Shown piece after piece: positions 29,483 to 60,745 of a stretch of 64,000 bases of DNA. The DNA is taken from the NCBI GenBank assembly GCA_031385005.1, contig JANNBB010000064.1, positions 17,459 to 81,458 on the forward strand, written 5' to 3'. A program made the position numbers and the translations under genes. The DNA is from Bacteroidota bacterium (GTDB lineage: Bacteria; Bacteroidota; Bacteroidia; AKYH767-A; 2013-40CM-41-45). Positions within the stretch are counted from its first letter, which is position 1. Each line of letters starts with the position of its first letter. The notes beneath the pieces are model-generated. The model was given only the letters and a program-made list of their open reading frames with translations, had not been told where the DNA came from and ran no database searches.

Positions 29483-29489
29483 CTTTTTT

Positions 29490-29636
29490 TTAATTAGCTG
29501 ATTTATTAATTAGCTGATTAGCTAATTCGTTAATTAGCTAATGATTTACGTGGAGGAGTCAAATTCAATTAATTATGGTGGGTGTAATTTACTAATCTTA
29601 ATTAATAAATTATCGAATAACTAATTAGCGAATTGA
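29490..29636. repeat. 8-nt-period TAATTAGC/TAATTCGT repeat pair (family B), probable empty cassette
   Basis: 29523-29542 is identical to 42688-42707. A degenerate opposite-orientation cluster lies at 29597-29636. Confidence 0.7.
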
Positions 29637-29667
29637 AGAAACGGTATCGAAAAAACCAATCAAAGCC

Positions 29668-35907: not shown

Positions 35908-37332
35908 ATGGTTTTTAGCAGTATTATTTTCCTTCTTTATTTTTTACCGGCATTTTTAATTACCTATTATTTTTCACCTGCTAAACTGAAAAATATTGTC
36001 ATACTTATCTTCAGTATATTTTTTTACAGTTGGGGAGCACCCAAATTCATTTTTGTAATTCTTGGAACCACATTGCTGGACTTCCATCTGGTAAAATGGA
36101 TGGATATGTCAATAACGAGGTTAAAGCGAAGAATTTTACTGACACTTTCTGTTTCCGTTAATTTAGGACTACTTATTTATTTTAAGTACTCTAATTTTTT
36201 TATTGAAAACTTTAATGCAATTCTTCATACGGTTGGTTTCGCGGAGGTTTCATGGGTCAAGTTAATTTTACCAATTGGGATTTCATTTTACACATTCGAA
36301 ACAATTACATATGTAGTTGATGTATATCGAAAGGTTCACAAGCCACTTACGAAATTCTGGGATTATCAACTCTATATTATTTTATTTCCAAAGCTGATTG
36401 CAGGGCCAATTATCAGGTACCATGATTTGGCCGATCAGATAACAGATCGTTCTGCAAATGAAAACGCAGATAACAGATTAATGGGCTTCTATAGATTTGT
36501 TATTGGGCTAGCTAAAAAAGTTTTAATAGCGAATCACATGGGCTTACAGGCCGATTCCATTTTTTATTATGATTTCAATAGTCTGGATACCTATACAGCC
36601 TGGATTGGAATATTAGCATATACATTTCAGATTTATTTTGATTTTTCAGGATATTCTGATATGGCGATTGGAATTGGTAAAATGATCGGATTTAAATTTC
36701 CTGAAAACTTTAATAACCCATATATATCAGGAAGTATTACTGAATTTTGGCGAAGATGGCATATATCATTAGGTGCCTGGATGCGAAATTATTTGTATAT
36801 TCCTTTAGGAGGAAACAGGGTACAGTCGAAAGGGCGATTGTATTTTAATTTATGGCTGGTTTTTCTCGCTTCAGGTTTGTGGCACGGTGCCTCCTGGAAC
36901 TTTGTGATATGGGGCGCTTACCATGGACTGTTTCTTGTGTTGGAAAGAAGTATTTTACTCAGGTTCTATGAAAAAACCGGAAAATTATTCAGTACAATAA
37001 CAACATTTTTTGTTGTAGTAATCGGCTGGGTTTTTTTTCGAATTGAAAATTTTCAAGATGCAATTTTATACATTAATAAAATGTTTTCTTTCAATCTAGT
37101 GAAGGCTATAAATCTTGATCGTGAATTTGTAGTTTTCTTTATTCTAGCAATTGTATTCTCCTTCTTTACTTATTCAAATACCGGAAAGAAAATACACGAC
37201 ACTGTATTTCTTTCAACCAAATTAAACTCAAAACACATTTTATTTTCAATAGTTGCATTTACTTTATTGATTTTATCGATAAGCTCAATCACCTCATTTG
37301 GATTTAACCCGTTTATTTATTTCAGATTCTAA
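35908..37332 (+). CDS. MBOAT family O-acyltransferase (AlgI/DltB-like)
   Basis: LPIGISFYTF, IAGPIIRY, YFDFSGYSDMAIG, ENFNNPY, FWRRWHISL, GLWHGASWNF and NPFIYFRF. Confidence 0.95.
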   Translation: MVFSSIIFLLYFLPAFLITYYFSPAKLKNIVILIFSIFFYSWGAPKFIFVILGTTLLDFHLVKWMDMSITRLKRRILLTLSVSVNLGLLIYFKYSNFFIENFNAILHTVGFAEVSWVKLILPIGISFYTFETITYVVDVYRKVHKPLTKFWDYQLYIILFPKLIAGPIIRYHDLADQITDRSANENADNRLMGFYRFVIGLAKKVLIANHMGLQADSIFYYDFNSLDTYTAWIGILAYTFQIYFDFSGYSDMAIGIGKMIGFKFPENFNNPYISGSITEFWRRWHISLGAWMRNYLYIPLGGNRVQSKGRLYFNLWLVFLASGLWHGASWNFVIWGAYHGLFLVLERSILLRFYEKTGKLFSTITTFFVVVIGWVFFRIENFQDAILYINKMFSFNLVKAINLDREFVVFFILAIVFSFFTYSNTGKKIHDTVFLSTKLNSKHILFSIVAFTLLILSISSITSFGFNPFIYFRF

Positions 37333-37333
37333 A

Positions 37334-38635
37334 ATGAAAAAAAATATTTCAGGAATTATATTTGTGTTTTGTATATTAATATTGATAATTCCATTTCTTC
37401 ATGAAAAAACTAAAATAATCAAAGTCAAACCTCTCAAGGGCGCCATCGTTGCCAAGAAAAAACCCGAGTTCGAATTCAAAAAATGGATGGATGGAGAATT
37501 TCAACCCGCTGAAGAAGAATATGTAAATGAAAATTTTGGATTTAGAAATATTTTTGTCAGACTAAACAATCAGTTGTCATTCTGGTTGTTTAATAAAGTG
37601 AACGTTAGCGATGTAATTATTGGTAAAGAAAATTATCTGTTTGAGCGAATGTATATTGATGCATATAAGGGAGCAGATTTTATTGGAGAAGATAGCATCA
37701 GGAGTAGGATGGAAAAACTTAAATTTATTAATGATACATTAACCAAATTAAATAAGAGCCTTATCCTGGTCTTTGCAGCGGACAAAGCTACTTTTTACCC
37801 TGAATATATACCCGAAAAGTATAATATTAATATTCCCGGAAAGAAGCTAAATTTCGATTATCACGTAATGTTTGCAAAAGAACAGGAACTTAATTATATT
37901 AATTTTAACAAATACTTTAGCTCAATTAAAAATTCTATAAAATATCCATTATATCCGAAATACGGTATTCATTGGAGCAATTACGGAATGTATATTGCTG
38001 CAGATTCGATCATCCATTATATCGAAAAATTGAGACAAGAGGACTTGCCGGAAATGCAGCTGGATACTATACTATGGGAAAAGCCAAAAGGAGATGATTA
38101 CGATGTCGCTGATGCGATGAATCTCTTATTTGTTTTGAAAAGTTTTCCTATGGCCTATCCAATTATTCATTTTGAGTCAACCGATAAAAATAAAAAACCG
38201 AACTTATTGGTAATTTCCGATAGTTTTTATTGGGGTTTATTTAATATGGGGTTTTCAAATGGATTTGAAAAAAGTAATTTTTGGTATTATAACAATCAGG
38301 TATTCCCCGAATCCTATAGCCAGCCAACTTCTGTAAAAGATTTAAATCTTAACAATGAAATTAAAAATCACGACGTATTCATCATTTTAGGCTCAGAAGG
38401 TACAATGTATAATTTTGGATGGGGATTTATTGAAAATGCTTATACATTGTTCAAGGGCGTAAACATTGACCAGGTAGATAATAGGCTATTCGAGAAAGAG
38501 GTAAAAGATAAAATGGATTATATCAAAACAGATAAAAAATGGATGGAACAAGTAGAGCACAAGGCTAAAGAATATAAGATAAGCGTCGATTCAATGTTAA
38601 GAAAGGATGCAATGTGGGTAATAGAAAATAAGTAA
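37334..38635 (+). CDS. AlgJ/AlgX-like SGNH O-acetyltransferase, paralog 2
   Basis: Start MKKNISG preferred; GKENYLFE, GIHWS and VISDSFYWG. Confidence 0.75.
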   Translation: MKKNISGIIFVFCILILIIPFLHEKTKIIKVKPLKGAIVAKKKPEFEFKKWMDGEFQPAEEEYVNENFGFRNIFVRLNNQLSFWLFNKVNVSDVIIGKENYLFERMYIDAYKGADFIGEDSIRSRMEKLKFINDTLTKLNKSLILVFAADKATFYPEYIPEKYNINIPGKKLNFDYHVMFAKEQELNYINFNKYFSSIKNSIKYPLYPKYGIHWSNYGMYIAADSIIHYIEKLRQEDLPEMQLDTILWEKPKGDDYDVADAMNLLFVLKSFPMAYPIIHFESTDKNKKPNLLVISDSFYWGLFNMGFSNGFEKSNFWYYNNQVFPESYSQPTSVKDLNLNNEIKNHDVFIILGSEGTMYNFGWGFIENAYTLFKGVNIDQVDNRLFEKEVKDKMDYIKTDKKWMEQVEHKAKEYKISVDSMLRKDAMWVIENK

Positions 38636-38844
38636 ATAAGTAAATAAGAAAGATAGGATTGCAAATACAATTATTCAGTGCGTCCCAATTTAATCAACAA
38701 CAACTTTAAAACATACAAGGTGTTTTTTTAAAACACAAATTAAAAAAAATTTTGAATCAAAGAGAAATCACCTACTACAATGAACCTGTGTAGAACCATA
38801 TCAACAAGAAATAATAACTTTGATTTGAAATATTAAATGCAGAA

Positions 38845-41991: not shown

Positions 41992-42690
41992 ATGAATAAA
42001 GTAGTAGCAAATGCCGATGAGGCGCTCAATGGTATCAAAGATAATATGACGCTCATGGTCGGTGGATTTGGTTTGTGCGGTATTCCCGAAAACCTGATCG
42101 CAGCACTTGTAAGAAGCAAGGTAATGGGACTAACATGCATTTCCAACAATGCAGGCGTAGATGATTTTGGATTAGGACTATTGCTTCAGCAAAGAATGAT
42201 TAAGAAAATGATTTCTTCCTACGTTGGCGAAAATGCAGAGTTTGAACGACAGTTACTAAGCGGAGAATTGGAAGTTGACTTAATACCCCAAGGTACTTTG
42301 GCGACGCGTTGCCTGGCAGCCGGTTACGGTATGCCTGCCATATATACCCCTGCAGGTGCGGGAACAGAAGTCGCAGAGGGAAAAGAAACCAGAAATTTCA
42401 ACGGTAAGGAATATTTATTGGAATATGCTTTCGATGCAGATTTCGCACTGGTAAAAGCATGGAAGGGCGATACGCATGGAAATTTAATTTTTCACGAAAC
42501 AGCTCGCAACTTTAATCCACTCATGGCCATGGCAGGAAAAATAACAGTCGTGGAAGTTGAAGAACTCGTCGAAGCCGGAAAACTCAATGCCAATAACATT
42601 CACACACCGGGAATTTATGTGCATCGTATTTTTGAAGGAAAAAATTATGAAAAAAGGATTGAACAGCGCACTGTACGCACGCGGGGGTAA
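41992..42690 (+). CDS. scoA: 3-oxoacid CoA-transferase subunit A
   Basis: [26 protein letters not shown] and TARNFNP. Confidence 0.95.
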
Positions 42691-43260
42691 TTCGTTAATT
42701 AGCTAATTCGTTGACAAGTTAAGTAGATATGTTAATAATCGATAAATAAAAAAATACCTAATATAAGAACTATAATAAATTGATTTGATAAATTAACTCT
42801 GAAAGCTAAAATTTGTATGTTTAAAACATATGAAAATGAGGAGTGAAGAAATTAAAGAAAACCTGATAGTGAGTTTAACTTTTAACTTTGCAATTTTGAT
42901 TACAAACTACTGTGAGCAACTGGATATGCTAAGGAGATACAATATTTCGAATCAATTATTTAGATCAGGTACCAGTATTGGAGCCAATGTTTGGGAAGCT
43001 CAGAATGCAGAAAGTAAAGCAGACTTTATTCATAAGTTTTAAATCGCCGCTAAGGAAATGGAGGAGACTAACTATTGGTTATTGCTTTGTAAAAACATAA
43101 ATACACTTCCAAATCCGGAACCTGTTTTAGAAGAGTTACAAAATATACAGCGTATCATCACAAAAATAATTTCAACAGCGAAGAAAAATTAGCTGATTAG
43201 CTAATTCGCTAATTAATCTTACAATTAACGAATCAGCTAATTAACGAATTAACGAATTAA
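42688..43260. mobile_element. Four-helix-bundle cassette flanked by 25-bp inverted repeats (family B), inserted between scoA and scoB
   Basis: 42688-42712 TAATTCGTTAATTAGCTAATTCGTT matches the reverse complement of 43227-43251 at 24/25 positions. Confidence 0.6.
42830..43192 (+). pseudogene. Four helix bundle protein (23S rRNA IVP family), interrupted by TAA
   Basis: QLFRSGTSIGANVWEAQNAESKADFIHKF*IAAKEMEETNYWL..., TAA at 43040-42 where Lys (AAA) is expected. The frame continues to TAG at 43190-92 (121 codons). Confidence 0.88.
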
Positions 43261-43264
43261 AAAA

Positions 43265-43924
43265 ATGCTTGACAAAAACGGAATCGCAAAAAGAATAGCA
43301 CAAGAAGTAAAAGACGGATATTACGTCAATCTTGGAATTGGAATACCTACACTGGTTGCCAATTATATTCCGCAAGGAATGAATGTGGTTTTACAATCAG
43401 AAAATGGTTTATTGGGAATGGGCCCCTTTCCTTTTGATGGCGAAGAAGACCCGGATCTCATTAATGCAGGTAAGCAAACAATAACTACCGTTCCCGGTTC
43501 GGCTTTTTTTGATTCGGCAATGAGTTTTGGAATGATACGCGCAGGAAAGGTAAACCTGACGATTCTCGGGGCAATGGAAGTAAGCGAAAATGGAGATATA
43601 GCTAATTGGAAAATTCCCGGTAAAATGGTGAAAGGTATGGGTGGCGCAATGGATCTTGTTGCATCCGCCAAACATATCATCGTCGCCATGCAACATGTGA
43701 ATAAAGCAGGAGAGTCGAAATTACTTCCTACTTGCTCACTACCACTTACTGGTAAACGATGCGTAAAAAGAATTGTAACAGAACTCGGTGTGCTGGATGT
43801 TTTACCTCAAGGCGGATTCAAATTACTTGAACTCGCACCGGGTATAAGTGTGGAACAAATCAAAAATGCAACTGCCGGAAAATTAATTATCGAAGGCGAT
43901 GTGAAGGAAATGCAGATTTCGTAA
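43265..43924 (+). CDS. scoB: 3-oxoacid CoA-transferase subunit B
   Basis: VNLGIGIPTLVAN, QSENG (catalytic Glu), ANW.IPGKMVKGMGGAMDLV. Confidence 0.95.
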   Translation: MLDKNGIAKRIAQEVKDGYYVNLGIGIPTLVANYIPQGMNVVLQSENGLLGMGPFPFDGEEDPDLINAGKQTITTVPGSAFFDSAMSFGMIRAGKVNLTILGAMEVSENGDIANWKIPGKMVKGMGGAMDLVASAKHIIVAMQHVNKAGESKLLPTCSLPLTGKRCVKRIVTELGVLDVLPQGGFKLLELAPGISVEQIKNATAGKLIIEGDVKEMQIS

Positions 43925-53243: not shown

Positions 53244-53954
53244 CTATACAATTTCGATTTCTTCGTCGGAGATTAGCGGTTCGCAGCGGAATTTTCGTAA
53301 AATCTGAGCAACAGTGAGTACATCTTTCTGGCAATAGGTAACGATACGTTCGATGTTTTTATCTTCCCAGTATACCTGCCACACCCTGCTTCCATCTATG
53401 TCGTCTTTCGGGGTTGGAATGCCGAGGATAAGGGCGAGCAGATTTAAGGACGTATAGGATTTATAATCGCCAAACTTCCACAGTTCCATTGTATCGAGGT
53501 GCGATACTTCCCACGGTTTCTTTCCAGCCGTATCCAGGATTGCCGGCATGGGAAGCTGGTTGATAATGATCCTGCGGCTCAGATAAGGAAAATCAAATTC
53601 TTTTCCATTGTGTGCGCAAAGAAATTTATCGGGAGTAGAGAATGATTTTTTCAAGACGACAGAGAAATCACTCAACAGTTGTTTTTCATCGTGACCGAAA
53701 AAAGATTTTATCCGAAAAACATTTTCTGCATTGAAATATCCGCACGAAATGCAAATTATTTTCCCGAATTCAGCATAGATTCCCGCACGGTGGTAGCTAT
53801 CGTTTACAGATTCTTCAGGATCTTTACGTAAGGTTCCAAACTTTTTCTCCCACAATTCCGCAAAAGCAGCAGGAACTTCTTCGAATGTTGAATACTGCGG
53901 AACAGTCTCTATATCGAGAAAGAGTATGTTTTTTAGGTTTAAGTTTTCAAGCAT
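53244..53954 (-). CDS. Predicted 3'-5' exonuclease (PolB/DnaQ-like)
   Basis: FLDIETVP, HNGKEFDFP, HLDTMELW and YCQKDV. Confidence 0.88.
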   Translation of the reverse strand: MLENLNLKNILFLDIETVPQYSTFEEVPAAFAELWEKKFGTLRKDPEESVNDSYHRAGIYAEFGKIICISCGYFNAENVFRIKSFFGHDEKQLLSDFSVVLKKSFSTPDKFLCAHNGKEFDFPYLSRRIIINQLPMPAILDTAGKKPWEVSHLDTMELWKFGDYKSYTSLNLLALILGIPTPKDDIDGSRVWQVYWEDKNIERIVTYCQKDVLTVAQILRKFRCEPLISDEEIEIV

Positions 53955-54184
53955 ATAAATAATTATTGTGTACTCAGTTCATACCTTCGACATCTCTGTG
54001 GTTTAAAACTATTAGTTGTACAAATATCGAGAGAGGTGTTTCACCCCAGAGTACAAAAGGACAAGATAACAATTAACGATATTTTTAATAAAGATAAATA
54101 AAACTGTCGTTCACTTATGCTAATATAATAGGGGAAATAAATTGTCAAGATAAAATATTTTTAAGCTAACGCTGAATTACATCC

Positions 54185-54225
54185 ATTAACAAATTAACGA
54201 ATCAGCTAATTAACAAATTAAGCAA
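54185..54225 (-). repeat. Family B repeat, solo copy just after a stop codon
   Basis: 54196-54220 matches 43227-43251 at 24/25 positions. Confidence 0.75.
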
Positions 54226-54642
54226 TCAGCGTATCATCACCCCGCGCTTTTTAAGCACAGGTATCAGTGTCAGGTTTTCTTCTTTAATCGTTTCGGGCAA
54301 GAAGACATATTTTTTGTCGTAAATATTTTTACCGATGTAAAAACTGACCCAGAATTCATTGCTCAATCCAAAAAGGTTATCCATGATCGGTTCAATCTTC
54401 GCATAATCCTGTGCATCGATATTACCGATTAGGTGACGCAGCACACTCGTCTTTACTTCGCGCCCTTCAAAACTGCCATAACCTTTTGAACTCACAAGGA
54501 CATTGTGAATCTGCTGATCATAAAGATTGATCACATAAGCATTCCAAATCGGTTCGCCTTCTTCATTCAGTTCACGAACGATGGCTACTGCCAGATTCTC
54601 TACTTCAAGTTTTGGAATATCTTTTAGCATAATTGTTAGCAA
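54226..54642 (-). CDS. Conserved hypothetical protein
   Basis: MLKDIP..EVE..A.AIV, W..Y.IN, VLVSSKGYG, TS.LRH, NE.WVSF...IYDKKY.FLP, a family I recognise as common in Bacteroidota. Confidence 0.8.
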   Translation of the reverse strand: MLTIMLKDIPKLEVENLAVAIVRELNEEGEPIWNAYVINLYDQQIHNVLVSSKGYGSFEGREVKTSVLRHLIGNIDAQDYAKIEPIMDNLFGLSNEFWVSFYIGKNIYDKKYVFLPETIKEENLTLIPVLKKRGVMIR

Positions 54643-59167: not shown

Positions 59168-59175
59168 TATCTTTG
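59168..59175 (+). promoter_or_regulatory. -7 promoter box TATCTTTG of lysS
   Basis: TAnnTTTG 18 nt before the ATG at 59194. Confidence 0.5.
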
Positions 59176-59193
59176 CACCACAATCTAAAAAAA

Positions 59194-60717
59194 ATGGAAT
59201 TAAGCGAGCAGGAACTTATACGTCGTCAAAAGCTGGATGATTTGTTGGAGCATGGAATAAATCCCTATCCTGCTGAACTTTGGGATATTACCCATTCCTC
59301 TAAAGACATTTTAGCCAATTTCCCTTCCAATCCGGATAATTTCAAAAACGTTCAAATTGCCGGCAGGGTTATGAGCGTTCGCGATATGGGAAAAGCATCC
59401 TTTGCTGTTTTGCAGGATTCCGCAGGCCGTATTCAGGTTTATGTTAGACGCGATGATATTTGTCCGGGCGAAGATAAATCAGCTTATGATTTTGTATTTA
59501 AAAAAGGCCTAGACATTGGCGACATCATAGGCGTAAAAGGATATGTATTTGTAACAAAAGTAGGTGAGACGAGCATTCATGTTACTGAATTTAAATTATT
59601 GAGTAAAGGATTGAGGCCGTTGCCAATCGTTAAGAAAGATGCGGATGGAAATGTGCACGATGCATTTACCGATCCGGAAATGCGTTATCGTCAGCGTTAT
59701 GTTGATCTCATCGTGAATCCGGAGGTGAAAGAAGCATTTATCAAACGTACAGCGCTCACGAATTCAATGAGAAAATTTCTCAATGAAAAAGAATATTTAG
59801 AAGTAGAAACACCAATCCTTCAGCCCTTATACGGTGGTGCAGCAGCTCGTCCTTTCAAGACACATCACAACACATTGGACATGACACTTTATTTGCGAAT
59901 TGCAAATGAATTGTATTTGAAACGCCTCATCGTTGGTGGCTTTGATGGAGTGTATGAATTTGCGAAGGACTTCCGCAATGAAGGGATGTCGCGTTTTCAT
60001 AATCCTGAATTTACACAGATGGAATTATACGTAGCATACAAAGACTACGAATGGATGATGAATCTGGTAGAAGAAATGGTTGAGCGTATTGCATTGGACA
60101 TTCACGGAAAAACAGAAATTCAGGTTGGTGACCATACGATAAATTTCAAACGACCATGGAAACGTTATACGATGTATGGAGCGATTGCTCATTACACAGG
60201 AGTGGATATAACTGAAATGACTGAAGCTGAAATTGCAAACGTCGCAAAGGATTTGGGAATTCATATTGATAAGTCAATGGGACGAGGAAAATTGATTGAT
60301 GAAATATTCGGAGAGAAATGTGAGCCGAATCTTATTCAGCCAACCTTTATCACCGACTATCCGGTGGAGATGAGTCCGCTCGCAAAGAAACACCGCAGCA
60401 AACCCGGACTCGTTGAACGATTTGAAGCAATATGCAACGGAAAAGAAATTTGCAATGCATTCTCCGAGCTCAACGACCCAATCGATCAGCGTAAGCGTTT
60501 TGAAGATCAATTGGAATTAGGAAAGCGCGGAGACGAAGAAGCGATGCAGCTCGACGAAGATTTTCTACGTGCATTGGAATTCGGGATGCCACCAACAGCA
60601 GGATTGGGTATTGGCATCGATCGACTTTCAATGATCATGACGAATTCTCCTTCGATACAGGATGTATTATTCTTCCCTCAAATGAGACCGGAGAAAATTA
60701 GTCAATTAGCTGATTAG
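59194..60717 (+). CDS. lysS: Lysine--tRNA ligase (class II)
   Basis: Start MELSEQE preferred; [32 protein letters not shown] and GMPPTAG.GIGIDR. Confidence 0.98.
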
Positions 60718-60745
60718 TTAATTCGTTAATTAGCTAATTAATAAT
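60703..60745 (+). repeat. Family B repeat, solo copy spanning the lysS stop
   Basis: 60719-60739 is identical to 42688-42708. Confidence 0.75.

Follow-up and report, generated by a model that had tools for sequence, protein, structure and literature searches.

In a 64,000-nucleotide (nt) stretch of contig JANNBB010000064.1 (assembly GCA_031385005.1) from a bacterium of the phylum Bacteroidota, hereafter the window, the genes for subunits A and B of 3-oxoacid CoA-transferase (scoA and scoB) are separated by a gap of 574 nt, which holds a cassette composed of a single gene of the 23S rRNA intervening-sequence protein family (PF05635/TIGR02436, four-helix bundle) between inverted arrays of short tandem repeats (Table 1). 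The arms form an inverted repeat of 25 nt (42688-42712 and 43227-43251) in which 24 of 25 positions match (96%), or of 35 nt at 80% in a looser version. According to a unit scan they are built of the 8-nt units TAATTCGT, TAATTAGC, TGATTAGC and TAATTCGC, arranged head to tail and abutting the stop and start codons of the adjoining genes: the TAA stop codon of scoA (42688-42690) is the opening triplet of the left array, and the right arm ends at 43259/43260, followed by a run of A that leaves 4-5 nt before the scoB start codon at 43265. An earlier reading of the unannotated DNA (the original prediction) had described this arrangement, including the near-perfect repeats of 8-nt units, correctly. 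In the left array three clear units are followed by degenerate ones up to ~42727; the right side forms a hairpin of its own (43187-43214 against the inverted 43223-43250, 28 nt, 82%); and the minimum-free-energy fold closes the entire cassette by a stem of ~26 base pairs (42688-42714 with 43226-43252). A repeat search found the arrays to be the only repeats inside the cassette. The cassette ends read TAA.../...TTA, and because the repeat itself contains TAA, a target duplication would be indistinguishable from it. Within the AT-rich spacer, a block at ~42790-42829 (TTGATAAATTAACTCTGAA..TAAAATTTGTAT) is shared with the orthologous cassette of loci L001 and L003 (alignment A2) and may be the promoter or leader of the cargo gene.

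The cargo gene is a single reading frame interrupted solely by one TAA codon, and is thus a pseudogene, as the original prediction had it. Its read-through product matches PF05635 at 72.6 bits (cut-off 33.8) and TIGR02436 at 88.8 bits (cut-off 24), and its own TAG stop codon sits within the right proximal array. Contigs from three sequencing runs cover the nonsense codon; they contain it, and no variant is listed at that place. The window copy is decaying: the protein has been lost through one nonsense change, and the arms have been retained. The closest homologue (P0001), intact and 86% identical, lies between scoA and scoB of a relative whose ScoA is 97% identical. Its predicted structure (predicted local distance difference test score 94) consists of four long helices and, in Foldseek comparisons, superimposes on 2RLD with template modelling (TM) scores of 0.83-0.91, on 2GSC with 0.81-0.85 and on the Avd structure 4DWL with 0.73-0.81 at a sequence identity of ~12-13%, so that the proposed relation to Avd holds. 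The nearest solved relative is 2RLD, which is BT_0352 of B. thetaiotaomicron (phmmer E = 2e-19). The deposited structures 2RLD and 2GSC have five chains each, and 2GSC is described as a homopentamer (PMC4990558); the homologue Avd sits in an RNA-protein complex (8UB7/8UB8). The conserved motif RxxxSxxxNxxE is present, the window protein reading F-R-S-G-T-S-I-G-A-N-V-W-E, with G45, T46, G49, A50 and E54 invariant in alignment A1; the leading G of the published motif GxxRxxxSxxxNxxE (PMC3936711) is missing from the window subfamily. The PF05635/TIGR02436 family yielded at least 8000 scored candidates, nearly all of them significant. The PADLOC models of anti-phage defence matched neither P0001 nor the protein type of locus L121, a relative that has a weak profile match to the PHROG family 'Avd protein of DGR' (diversity-generating retroelement).

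The near neighbours of the cassette are an aminotransferase gene, scoA, scoB and an open reading frame (ORF) of 685 residues with no Pfam match. No transposase or recombinase was found in the cassette or its immediate neighbours, which agrees with the original prediction, and no reverse transcriptase or template/variable repeat pair was found in the cassette or its neighbours, the remaining window not having been scanned for reverse transcriptase. A tblastn search of the 64 kb found no second four-helix-bundle gene of the cargo type. No tRNA gene was found in the window, and no Rfam model matched anywhere in it at the gathering threshold, hence no rRNA; the only weak match, of a plant microRNA model over the right hairpin (E = 0.4), was dismissed as chance.

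Table 1. Features of the scoA-scoB cassette and of the other arrays with its units; coordinates are positions in the window
Feature	Coordinates	Strand	Description and basis
scoA-type gene	41992..42690	+	3-oxoacid CoA-transferase subunit A; ORF list, PF01144, TIGR02429 (257 bits)
Left array	42688..42714	+	units TAATTCGT TAATTAGC TAATTCGT; repeat search, unit scan, fold
AT-rich spacer	42715..42829	+	alignment A2
Four-helix-bundle gene	42830..43192	+	PF05635/TIGR02436; 120 codons, broken
Nonsense TAA	43040..43042	+	AAA (Lys) in orthologue L001; codon alignment
Right proximal array	43187..43214	+	AATTAGCT GATTAGCT AATTCGCT AATT, oriented as the left array; repeat search
Right distal array	43223..43260	+	reverse-complement units AACGAATC AGCTAATT AACGAATT AACGAATTA; repeat search, fold
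scoB-type gene	43265..43924	+	3-oxoacid CoA-transferase subunit B; ORF list, TIGR02428 (322 bits)
'Empty' cassette	29483..29667	-	no ORF; between a TerB/DnaJ-domain gene and a CvpA (Colicin_V) gene
One-sided array	54186..54230	-	scoAB units; overlaps the TGA stop of ORF 54226-54642
One-sided array	60696..60745	+	scoAB units; gives the last codons and TAG stop of the lysyl-tRNA synthetase gene (59173-60717)

Recurrence of the cassette in Bacteroidota and other phyla

The 80 best genome loci for the cargo protein, all of them from Bacteroidota of several orders, share its architecture. The best local period is 8 nt in 71 of 80 upstream and 73 of 80 downstream flanks, and the inverted-repeat score between the two flanks has a median of 16, compared with 8 for shuffled sequence (99th percentile 10), 9 for flanks paired across loci and 8 in direct orientation. 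Arrays of 8-nt units occur at 2.04 per kb within 260 nt of the genes and at 0.04 per kb elsewhere in the same loci (~50-fold), with called left arrays in the sense orientation in 66 of 66 cases and right arrays reverse-complemented in 63 of 75. The units share a core of the type RATKWGNN (R-A-T-K-W-G-N-N), in which the A, T and G have frequencies of.97,.97 and.88; the same fitting applied to non-array DNA gives.76/.74/.47, indicating a real core that is partly inflated by phase fitting. Clades whose proteins have no more than 55-65% identity share this core. The median array has ~4.5 units (range 3 to 17), and copy number differs even between the near-identical contigs L001 and L003. Between the window and L001, unit changes are mirrored in both arms, which were compared by unit-level matching since tandem units make the alignment register arbitrary. 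The homologues (P0001-P0120) are mostly found on contigs of ~0.5-3 kb, which fits metagenome assemblies breaking at the flanking arrays.

The gene is oriented as its upstream neighbour at 79 of 84 loci and as its downstream neighbour at 69 of 78, and certain junctions recur: scoA-scoB, sufB-sufC, ftsX-like-tsaD, metH-metF and arsC-arsM-acr3. The proposal that the unit slots into operons without disrupting the neighbouring genes is borne out by these recurrent junctions and by the co-orientation.

The cassette architecture with 7-8-nt units recurs in at least four bacterial phyla. BT_0352 belongs to the arabinose operon; at a locus encoding a protein 98% identical to it, the gene separates araD from araA, its left array being (AATTGAC)n and its right array the reverse complement. 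Cassettes on cyanobacterial plasmids have inverted heptamer arrays of GGGTGTA, GGGAGTA, GGGAACA, AAAGGGA, AGGCAGA or GGTGACA, and often separate two genes of like orientation, for example cas6 and cas4 or cmr2 and cmr3; in the syntenic copies on plasmids of Calothrix and Nostoc punctiforme (L170, L172), the cassette is directly downstream of a tyrosine recombinase/phage integrase gene on the same strand. A copy in Gemmatirosa has GC-rich 8-mers, and a copy on an Azospirillum plasmid (L179) is a genuine intervening sequence of 23S rRNA, flanked on either side by GGACGGA/GGACAGA-type units.

It is the cassette and its protein subfamily, and not the host, that the repeat unit and its period follow. 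Window-type cassettes have a period of 8 nt in 29 of 30 upstream and 45 of 47 downstream called arrays, and other subfamilies one of 7 nt in 17 of 20 upstream and 19 of 24 downstream called arrays (Fisher p about 1e-9 to 1e-10, uncorrected for phylogeny). Where both arrays of a non-window-type cassette were called, the left unit is usually the reverse complement of the right, and units differ between cassettes. In Flavobacterium suf operons (L026, L054, L057, L072, L040), up to three cassettes occur in succession (iscA-IVP-sufB-IVP-sufC-IVP-sufD, IVP being the intervening-sequence protein gene), of which the middle one is of the window subfamily with AATTTGAA 8-mers and the outer ones, which are of another subfamily, have AAGTTTA- and AAAGTCR-type 7-mers. 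One Nostoc plasmid has two cassettes with different units, GGGAGTA and GGGAACA, and the second unit is retained by the orthologous cassette of another strain; the Bacteroidia locus L013 has the G-rich unit GGGGACT beside a gene of the L179/L170 type, plus an AT-rich window-type cassette. A single unit homogenised throughout the genome, as in REP-like repeats, was considered and ruled out, because one operon or plasmid carries cassettes with different units. An exception to this diversity is the window itself, in which the solo arrays share the units of the scoAB cassette.

These arrays elsewhere in the window include the empty and solo copies of the original prediction, all of which exist (Table 1). 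The 'empty' cassette has arms of 17 nt at 88% (29524-29540 and 29618-29634) with scoAB-type units at both ends, and both solo arrays overlap the stop codon of their upstream gene. The unit string TAATTAGCTGATTAGC holds TAA, TAG and TGA across the three frames, so that any ORF entering such an array ends there. In the source metagenome, from freshwater sediment, sequencing depth rises from ~33 to ~600 over the right arrays (~18-fold), indicating many similar arrays in that community. The solo array at 54186-54230 (region 53244-54642, minus strand) is upstream of a PolB-exonuclease-like gene (PF10108), and a full cassette is upstream of the homologue of this gene in L068 and probably L055; the solo array, near which no gene remnant was detected, may be the mark of a lost cassette. 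Two unrelated 8-nt arrays were also observed: AATAAGTA in three copies at 38620-38653, overlapping the stop codon of ORF 37298-38635, and TTGTAAAC in three copies at 2106-2135, which is intergenic.

Inheritance and turnover at the scoA-scoB junction

Ratios of nonsynonymous to synonymous substitution rates (dN/dS) of 0.02-0.17 in orthologous pairs of cassette genes indicate purifying selection, and hence genes that work in most lineages. The pair formed by the window and L001 has a ratio of 0.165, at the high end of the range, which would fit a recent loss of function in the window. The synonymous divergence of the cargo gene (42830-43189) from L001 is 0.46, about half that of the flanking scoA and scoB (0.82); this may be noise in 120 codons, or the ancestor of the two cassettes may be younger than that of their flanks.

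In a neighbour-joining tree, the proteins group mostly by junction: those at sufB-sufC, metH-metF and ftsX/tsaD form one clade each, the ars cassettes are found together, and those at scoA-scoB fall into several clades. Among scoA-scoB cassettes, protein identity tracks host-gene identity (Spearman 0.60), with L048 and the pair L016 and L001 as outliers. Of 74 loci with complete ScoA and ScoB, 20 have the cassette and 51 are empty, giving the empty sites that the original prediction had suggested looking for in relatives; the other three have a decayed cassette remnant (L120), a cassette of a different subfamily with its own arrays (L121) and, as a side observation, an AT-rich insert of 1.5 kb in which nothing matches the four-helix-bundle family (L157). 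At empty sites the intergenic gap ranges from -11 to 114 nt, some of the genes overlapping (ATGTTGGATAA), and where it is short (0-50 nt, or the ATGTTGGATAA overlap) it suggests coupled translation of scoA and scoB. Four sites scored as empty, with gaps of 49-114 nt (L106, L107, L140, L141), contain a GC-richer palindromic element (GTCATTGCGAG ... CTCGCAATGAC), apparently another intergenic repeat family at the same spot. Parsimony on the host-gene tree gives at least 12 presence/absence changes at this junction, a rough count because the trees are simple distance trees without support values.

Predicted folding of the transcript and competing explanations

On balance, and with modest confidence, we favour the reading that the cassette is an old element of the 23S rRNA intervening-sequence type, located at an operon junction and looped out of the operon transcript by its arms. 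It would be kin to the ORF-bearing intervening sequences of 23S rRNA, composed of a gene for a pentamer-type, Avd-like four-helix bundle and inverted arrays of a cassette-specific short tandem repeat, and would have resided at scoA-scoB for a long time in some of the Bacteroidota, for the most part passed down with the operon and at times lost, gained or replaced. Upon transcription, the predicted pairing of the arrays would loop the cassette out and bring the scoA stop codon beside the scoB start codon, and this restored neighbourhood may be why the operon withstands the insertion. If the rRNA elements are a guide, the stem would likely be cut by RNase III, freeing the cargo RNA from the scoA and scoB parts. 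Consistent with pairing, the duplex energy of left and right flanks has a median of -26 kcal/mol, compared with -16 for shuffled flanks and -19 for mismatched loci, and at most loci the duplex begins 0-5 nt from the upstream stop codon and ends a few nt from the downstream ATG, a placement partly forced by how the flanks were cut. A search of RNA sequencing runs found none containing the scoAB locus of the window. Lake metatranscriptome contigs compared with the Flavobacterium locus L054 represent 90-95% relatives; related transcripts exist, and some of these relatives are without the cassette.

Several observations weigh against looping-out as a full account. The fold of the whole cassette has a modest z-score of -2.2. 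Mismatches between arms, read on the sense strand, comprise 51 G.U and 63 A.C (p = 0.3), and with no excess of G.U the pairing of sense RNA is not specifically supported by this test. The construction of the arms as tandem arrays, and the linkage of their unit and period to the protein subfamily, are left unexplained by a plain RNase III stem. One cassette (L171) is antisense to its neighbours, and another (L176) is flanked by arrays that point the same way, (AAAAGCT) x16 and (AAAAGCC) x14, the inverted copy being farther upstream. Occupied lineages whose sisters have clean empty sites are hard to explain by loss alone and, together with the changes counted by parsimony, suggest a cassette that is mostly inherited with its operon yet repeatedly gained, lost or replaced. 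Finally, pairing of the arms in the scoAB mRNA is predicted from folding, and its cleavage is proposed by analogy.

The main rival, which overlaps with the loop-out reading and complements it, is a cognate module: the pentameric protein would bind its own tandem units in RNA or DNA, at about one unit per subunit, and pairing of the arms would be secondary. The role of the arrays would then be autoregulation, help in processing or melting the stem, or making the downstream gene dependent on the cassette. We consider this possible, though doubtful as the primary explanation. The lack of a G.U excess, the tandem construction of the arms and the specificity of units to cassettes point to recognition of the unit by the protein, as do the linkage of unit and period to the subfamily in place of the host, the coexistence of three units in one Flavobacterium suf operon and two on one Nostoc plasmid, the GGGGACT unit found beside an L179/L170-type gene in L013, and the unit core kept across distant clades; a median of ~4.5 units per array may be compared with five chains in two structures of the family, and the homologue Avd is found in an RNA-protein complex. 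These are all correlations, which shared ancestry of gene and flanks could yield; moreover, the number of units varies from 3 to 17, and the arms in the window are near-perfect despite the broken protein. The suggestion of the original prediction that the small protein is the unit's own factor fits the covariation of unit and period with the subfamily, which is a correlation only.

Another alternative, which we regard as improbable, is a currently active mobile element of the miniature inverted-repeat or homing type that targets stop/start junctions; the protein would be its mobility factor, and the solo and empty copies would be non-autonomous derivatives of it. It could account for the 12 or more changes at scoA-scoB and the clean empty sites beside occupied sisters, for the other subfamily of L121 and the decayed copy of L120 at that same junction, for cargo far more divergent than the host genes (L048; L016 versus L001), for the different array copy numbers of L001 and L003, and for the ~18-fold depth that implies many similar arrays; mobility was proposed for the rRNA elements by Ralph and McClelland, as cited in PMC4990558. 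However, neither the scoAB cassette nor its immediate neighbours encode a transposase, recombinase or reverse transcriptase, the protein is without a catalytic domain, no target duplication can be clearly discerned, the proteins group by junction and diverge together with the host, strong purifying selection acts across orders at fixed positions, and the 64 kb of the window contain a single such gene. In runs X1-X3, every near-identical contig spanning the cassette carries it, none being empty, and insertion polymorphism is seen only among more distant relatives. Apparent skips from 42708/42712 to 43223-43239 were considered as excision products and rejected, since they match only 21-25 nt on one side and are other copies of the array family. 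The original claim of mobility therefore holds over evolutionary time and not demonstrably for the present day, given the clustering by junction, the correlation with host-gene identity, the purifying selection and the lack of an excised form among near-identical contigs.

A segment of DNA that flips between its inverted repeats as a phase-variation switch, which the original prediction had also offered, is disfavoured as very improbable: inverted repeats do flank a stretch that may hold a promoter, but orientation relative to the neighbours is fixed at 79 of 84 loci and in every scoA-scoB cassette, no invertase or recombinase is adjacent, arms that are imperfect tandem arrays are unlike known invertase sites, and neither strand-changing nor excision joints were seen in the near-identical contigs, which are assembled sequences. 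Coincidence, with ordinary simple repeats or terminator hairpins around an unrelated hypothetical gene, is scarcely credible, for although arrays of the same unit occur without the gene elsewhere in the window and stand-alone intergenic heptamer arrays have been described (PMC4679880, PMC4692102), it is already refuted by the enrichment of arrays beside the genes, their consistent orientation, the match of left and right units within cassettes that differ from one another, the recurrence in at least four phyla and the inverted-repeat scores across the 80 loci.

Relation to known elements and wider significance

The closest precedent is the ORF-bearing intervening sequence of 23S rRNA ('S23p' ORF) in Leptospira, Coxiella burnetii, Brucella and Xanthomonas, to which the original prediction drew no link. 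Both kinds of element have a PF05635 protein, inverted-repeat termini that close the element and short tandem repeats beside the ORF; in both the ORF has decayed in some lineages, and mobility is suspected without a known mechanism. In Coxiella, tandem GACAGAT heptamers beside the ORF vary in copy number between strains, and excision of the ORF-bearing intervening sequence by RNase III has been demonstrated experimentally (PMC4990558). Such excision would apply to the scoAB cassette by inference from the rRNA elements. The scoAB cassette differs in that it lies between protein-coding genes instead of in helix 45 of 23S rRNA, in its AT-rich 8-nt units, and in that family members at operon junctions evolve under purifying selection and occupy the same junction in different orders. 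Because the defining location in rRNA is lacking, the cassette is a variant and not a member of the 23S intervening sequences.

Avd of the diversity-generating retroelements has the same fold and is part of a protein-RNA complex, whereas the scoAB cassette and its neighbours have neither the reverse transcriptase nor the template/variable repeat pair; we know of no counterpart of the flanking tandem arrays in those retroelements. REP/REPIN sequences with their RAYT gene are alike in having a single gene between inverted short repeats that are also dispersed at gene ends, but the cargo of the scoAB cassette is a small helical bundle without a nuclease or transposase motif (a match to PF05635 only, and not to HUH/Y1), its repeats are tandem arrays instead of single imperfect palindromes, and cassettes of one genome have different units.

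Intergenic heptamer arrays have been described with the unit TAACTGA in Beggiatoaceae, cyanobacteria and some Bacteroidetes (PMC4679880), with GGGAATC in Xanthomonas, where there are ~70 convergent inverted pairs, and with GGGGA(C/T)T in Nostoc (PMC4692102). They resemble the arrays of the scoAB type in their tandem 7-8-nt units near start codons or over stop codons, their variable copy number and the inverted pairs of Xanthomonas, and differ in that the scoAB-type arrays are inverted around a four-helix-bundle gene and have a cassette-specific unit; a term search of the two papers found no mention of four-helix-bundle genes. PF05635 genes between cas6 and cas4 or between cmr2 and cmr3 have been interpreted as CRISPR-associated (PMC3936711, PMC10910872). 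They belong to the same family and are likewise positioned between two co-oriented genes of an operon, and those at cas6/cas4 and cmr2/cmr3 on cyanobacterial plasmids (L176-L178) carry flanking heptamer arrays, a pattern suggesting that these cassettes occupy cas operons just as they do other operons; the published association with CRISPR may be mere insertion of a cassette into cas operons. In open-access papers and preprints, we found none that links the gene to the arrays or describes cassettes at operon junctions, and a description elsewhere is possible; the gene and the repeats belong together, and the unit is poorly described, as the original prediction had it.

The interest of the window lies in the general rule that its decaying copy exposes. 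The rule, which could be checked at every fetched locus, is that a PF05635 gene stands with inverted arrays of a cassette-specific 7-8-nt unit between co-transcribed genes, with the arms bridging the upstream stop codon and the downstream start codon. It joins literatures that are separate in the papers searched, on rRNA intervening sequences, on intergenic heptamer repeats and on 'CRISPR-associated' PF05635 genes, and it explains the breaks of metagenome assemblies at these loci and the small 'four helix bundle protein' genes that split conserved operons. Structures of the PF05635/TIGR02436 family have been available since 2006-2007, with no known function, and the only contexts studied have been rRNA intervening sequences and retroelements (Avd). 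We tentatively suggest that PF05635 proteins and inverted tandem arrays constitute one self-contained, ancient class of elements in several phyla, in which each protein might recognise its own 7- or 8-nt unit. Equally tentative is the extension that one unit, in RNA or DNA, is perhaps bound per subunit of the pentamer, and that the homes of the class are conserved sites of high transcription, namely helices of 23S rRNA and operon junctions. If true, the 'CRISPR association' would be recast as the insertion of cassettes, a share, if not all, of the long-puzzling heptamer and octamer repeats between genes in cyanobacteria, xanthomonads and Bacteroidota would be accounted for, and a very large family would acquire its first function.

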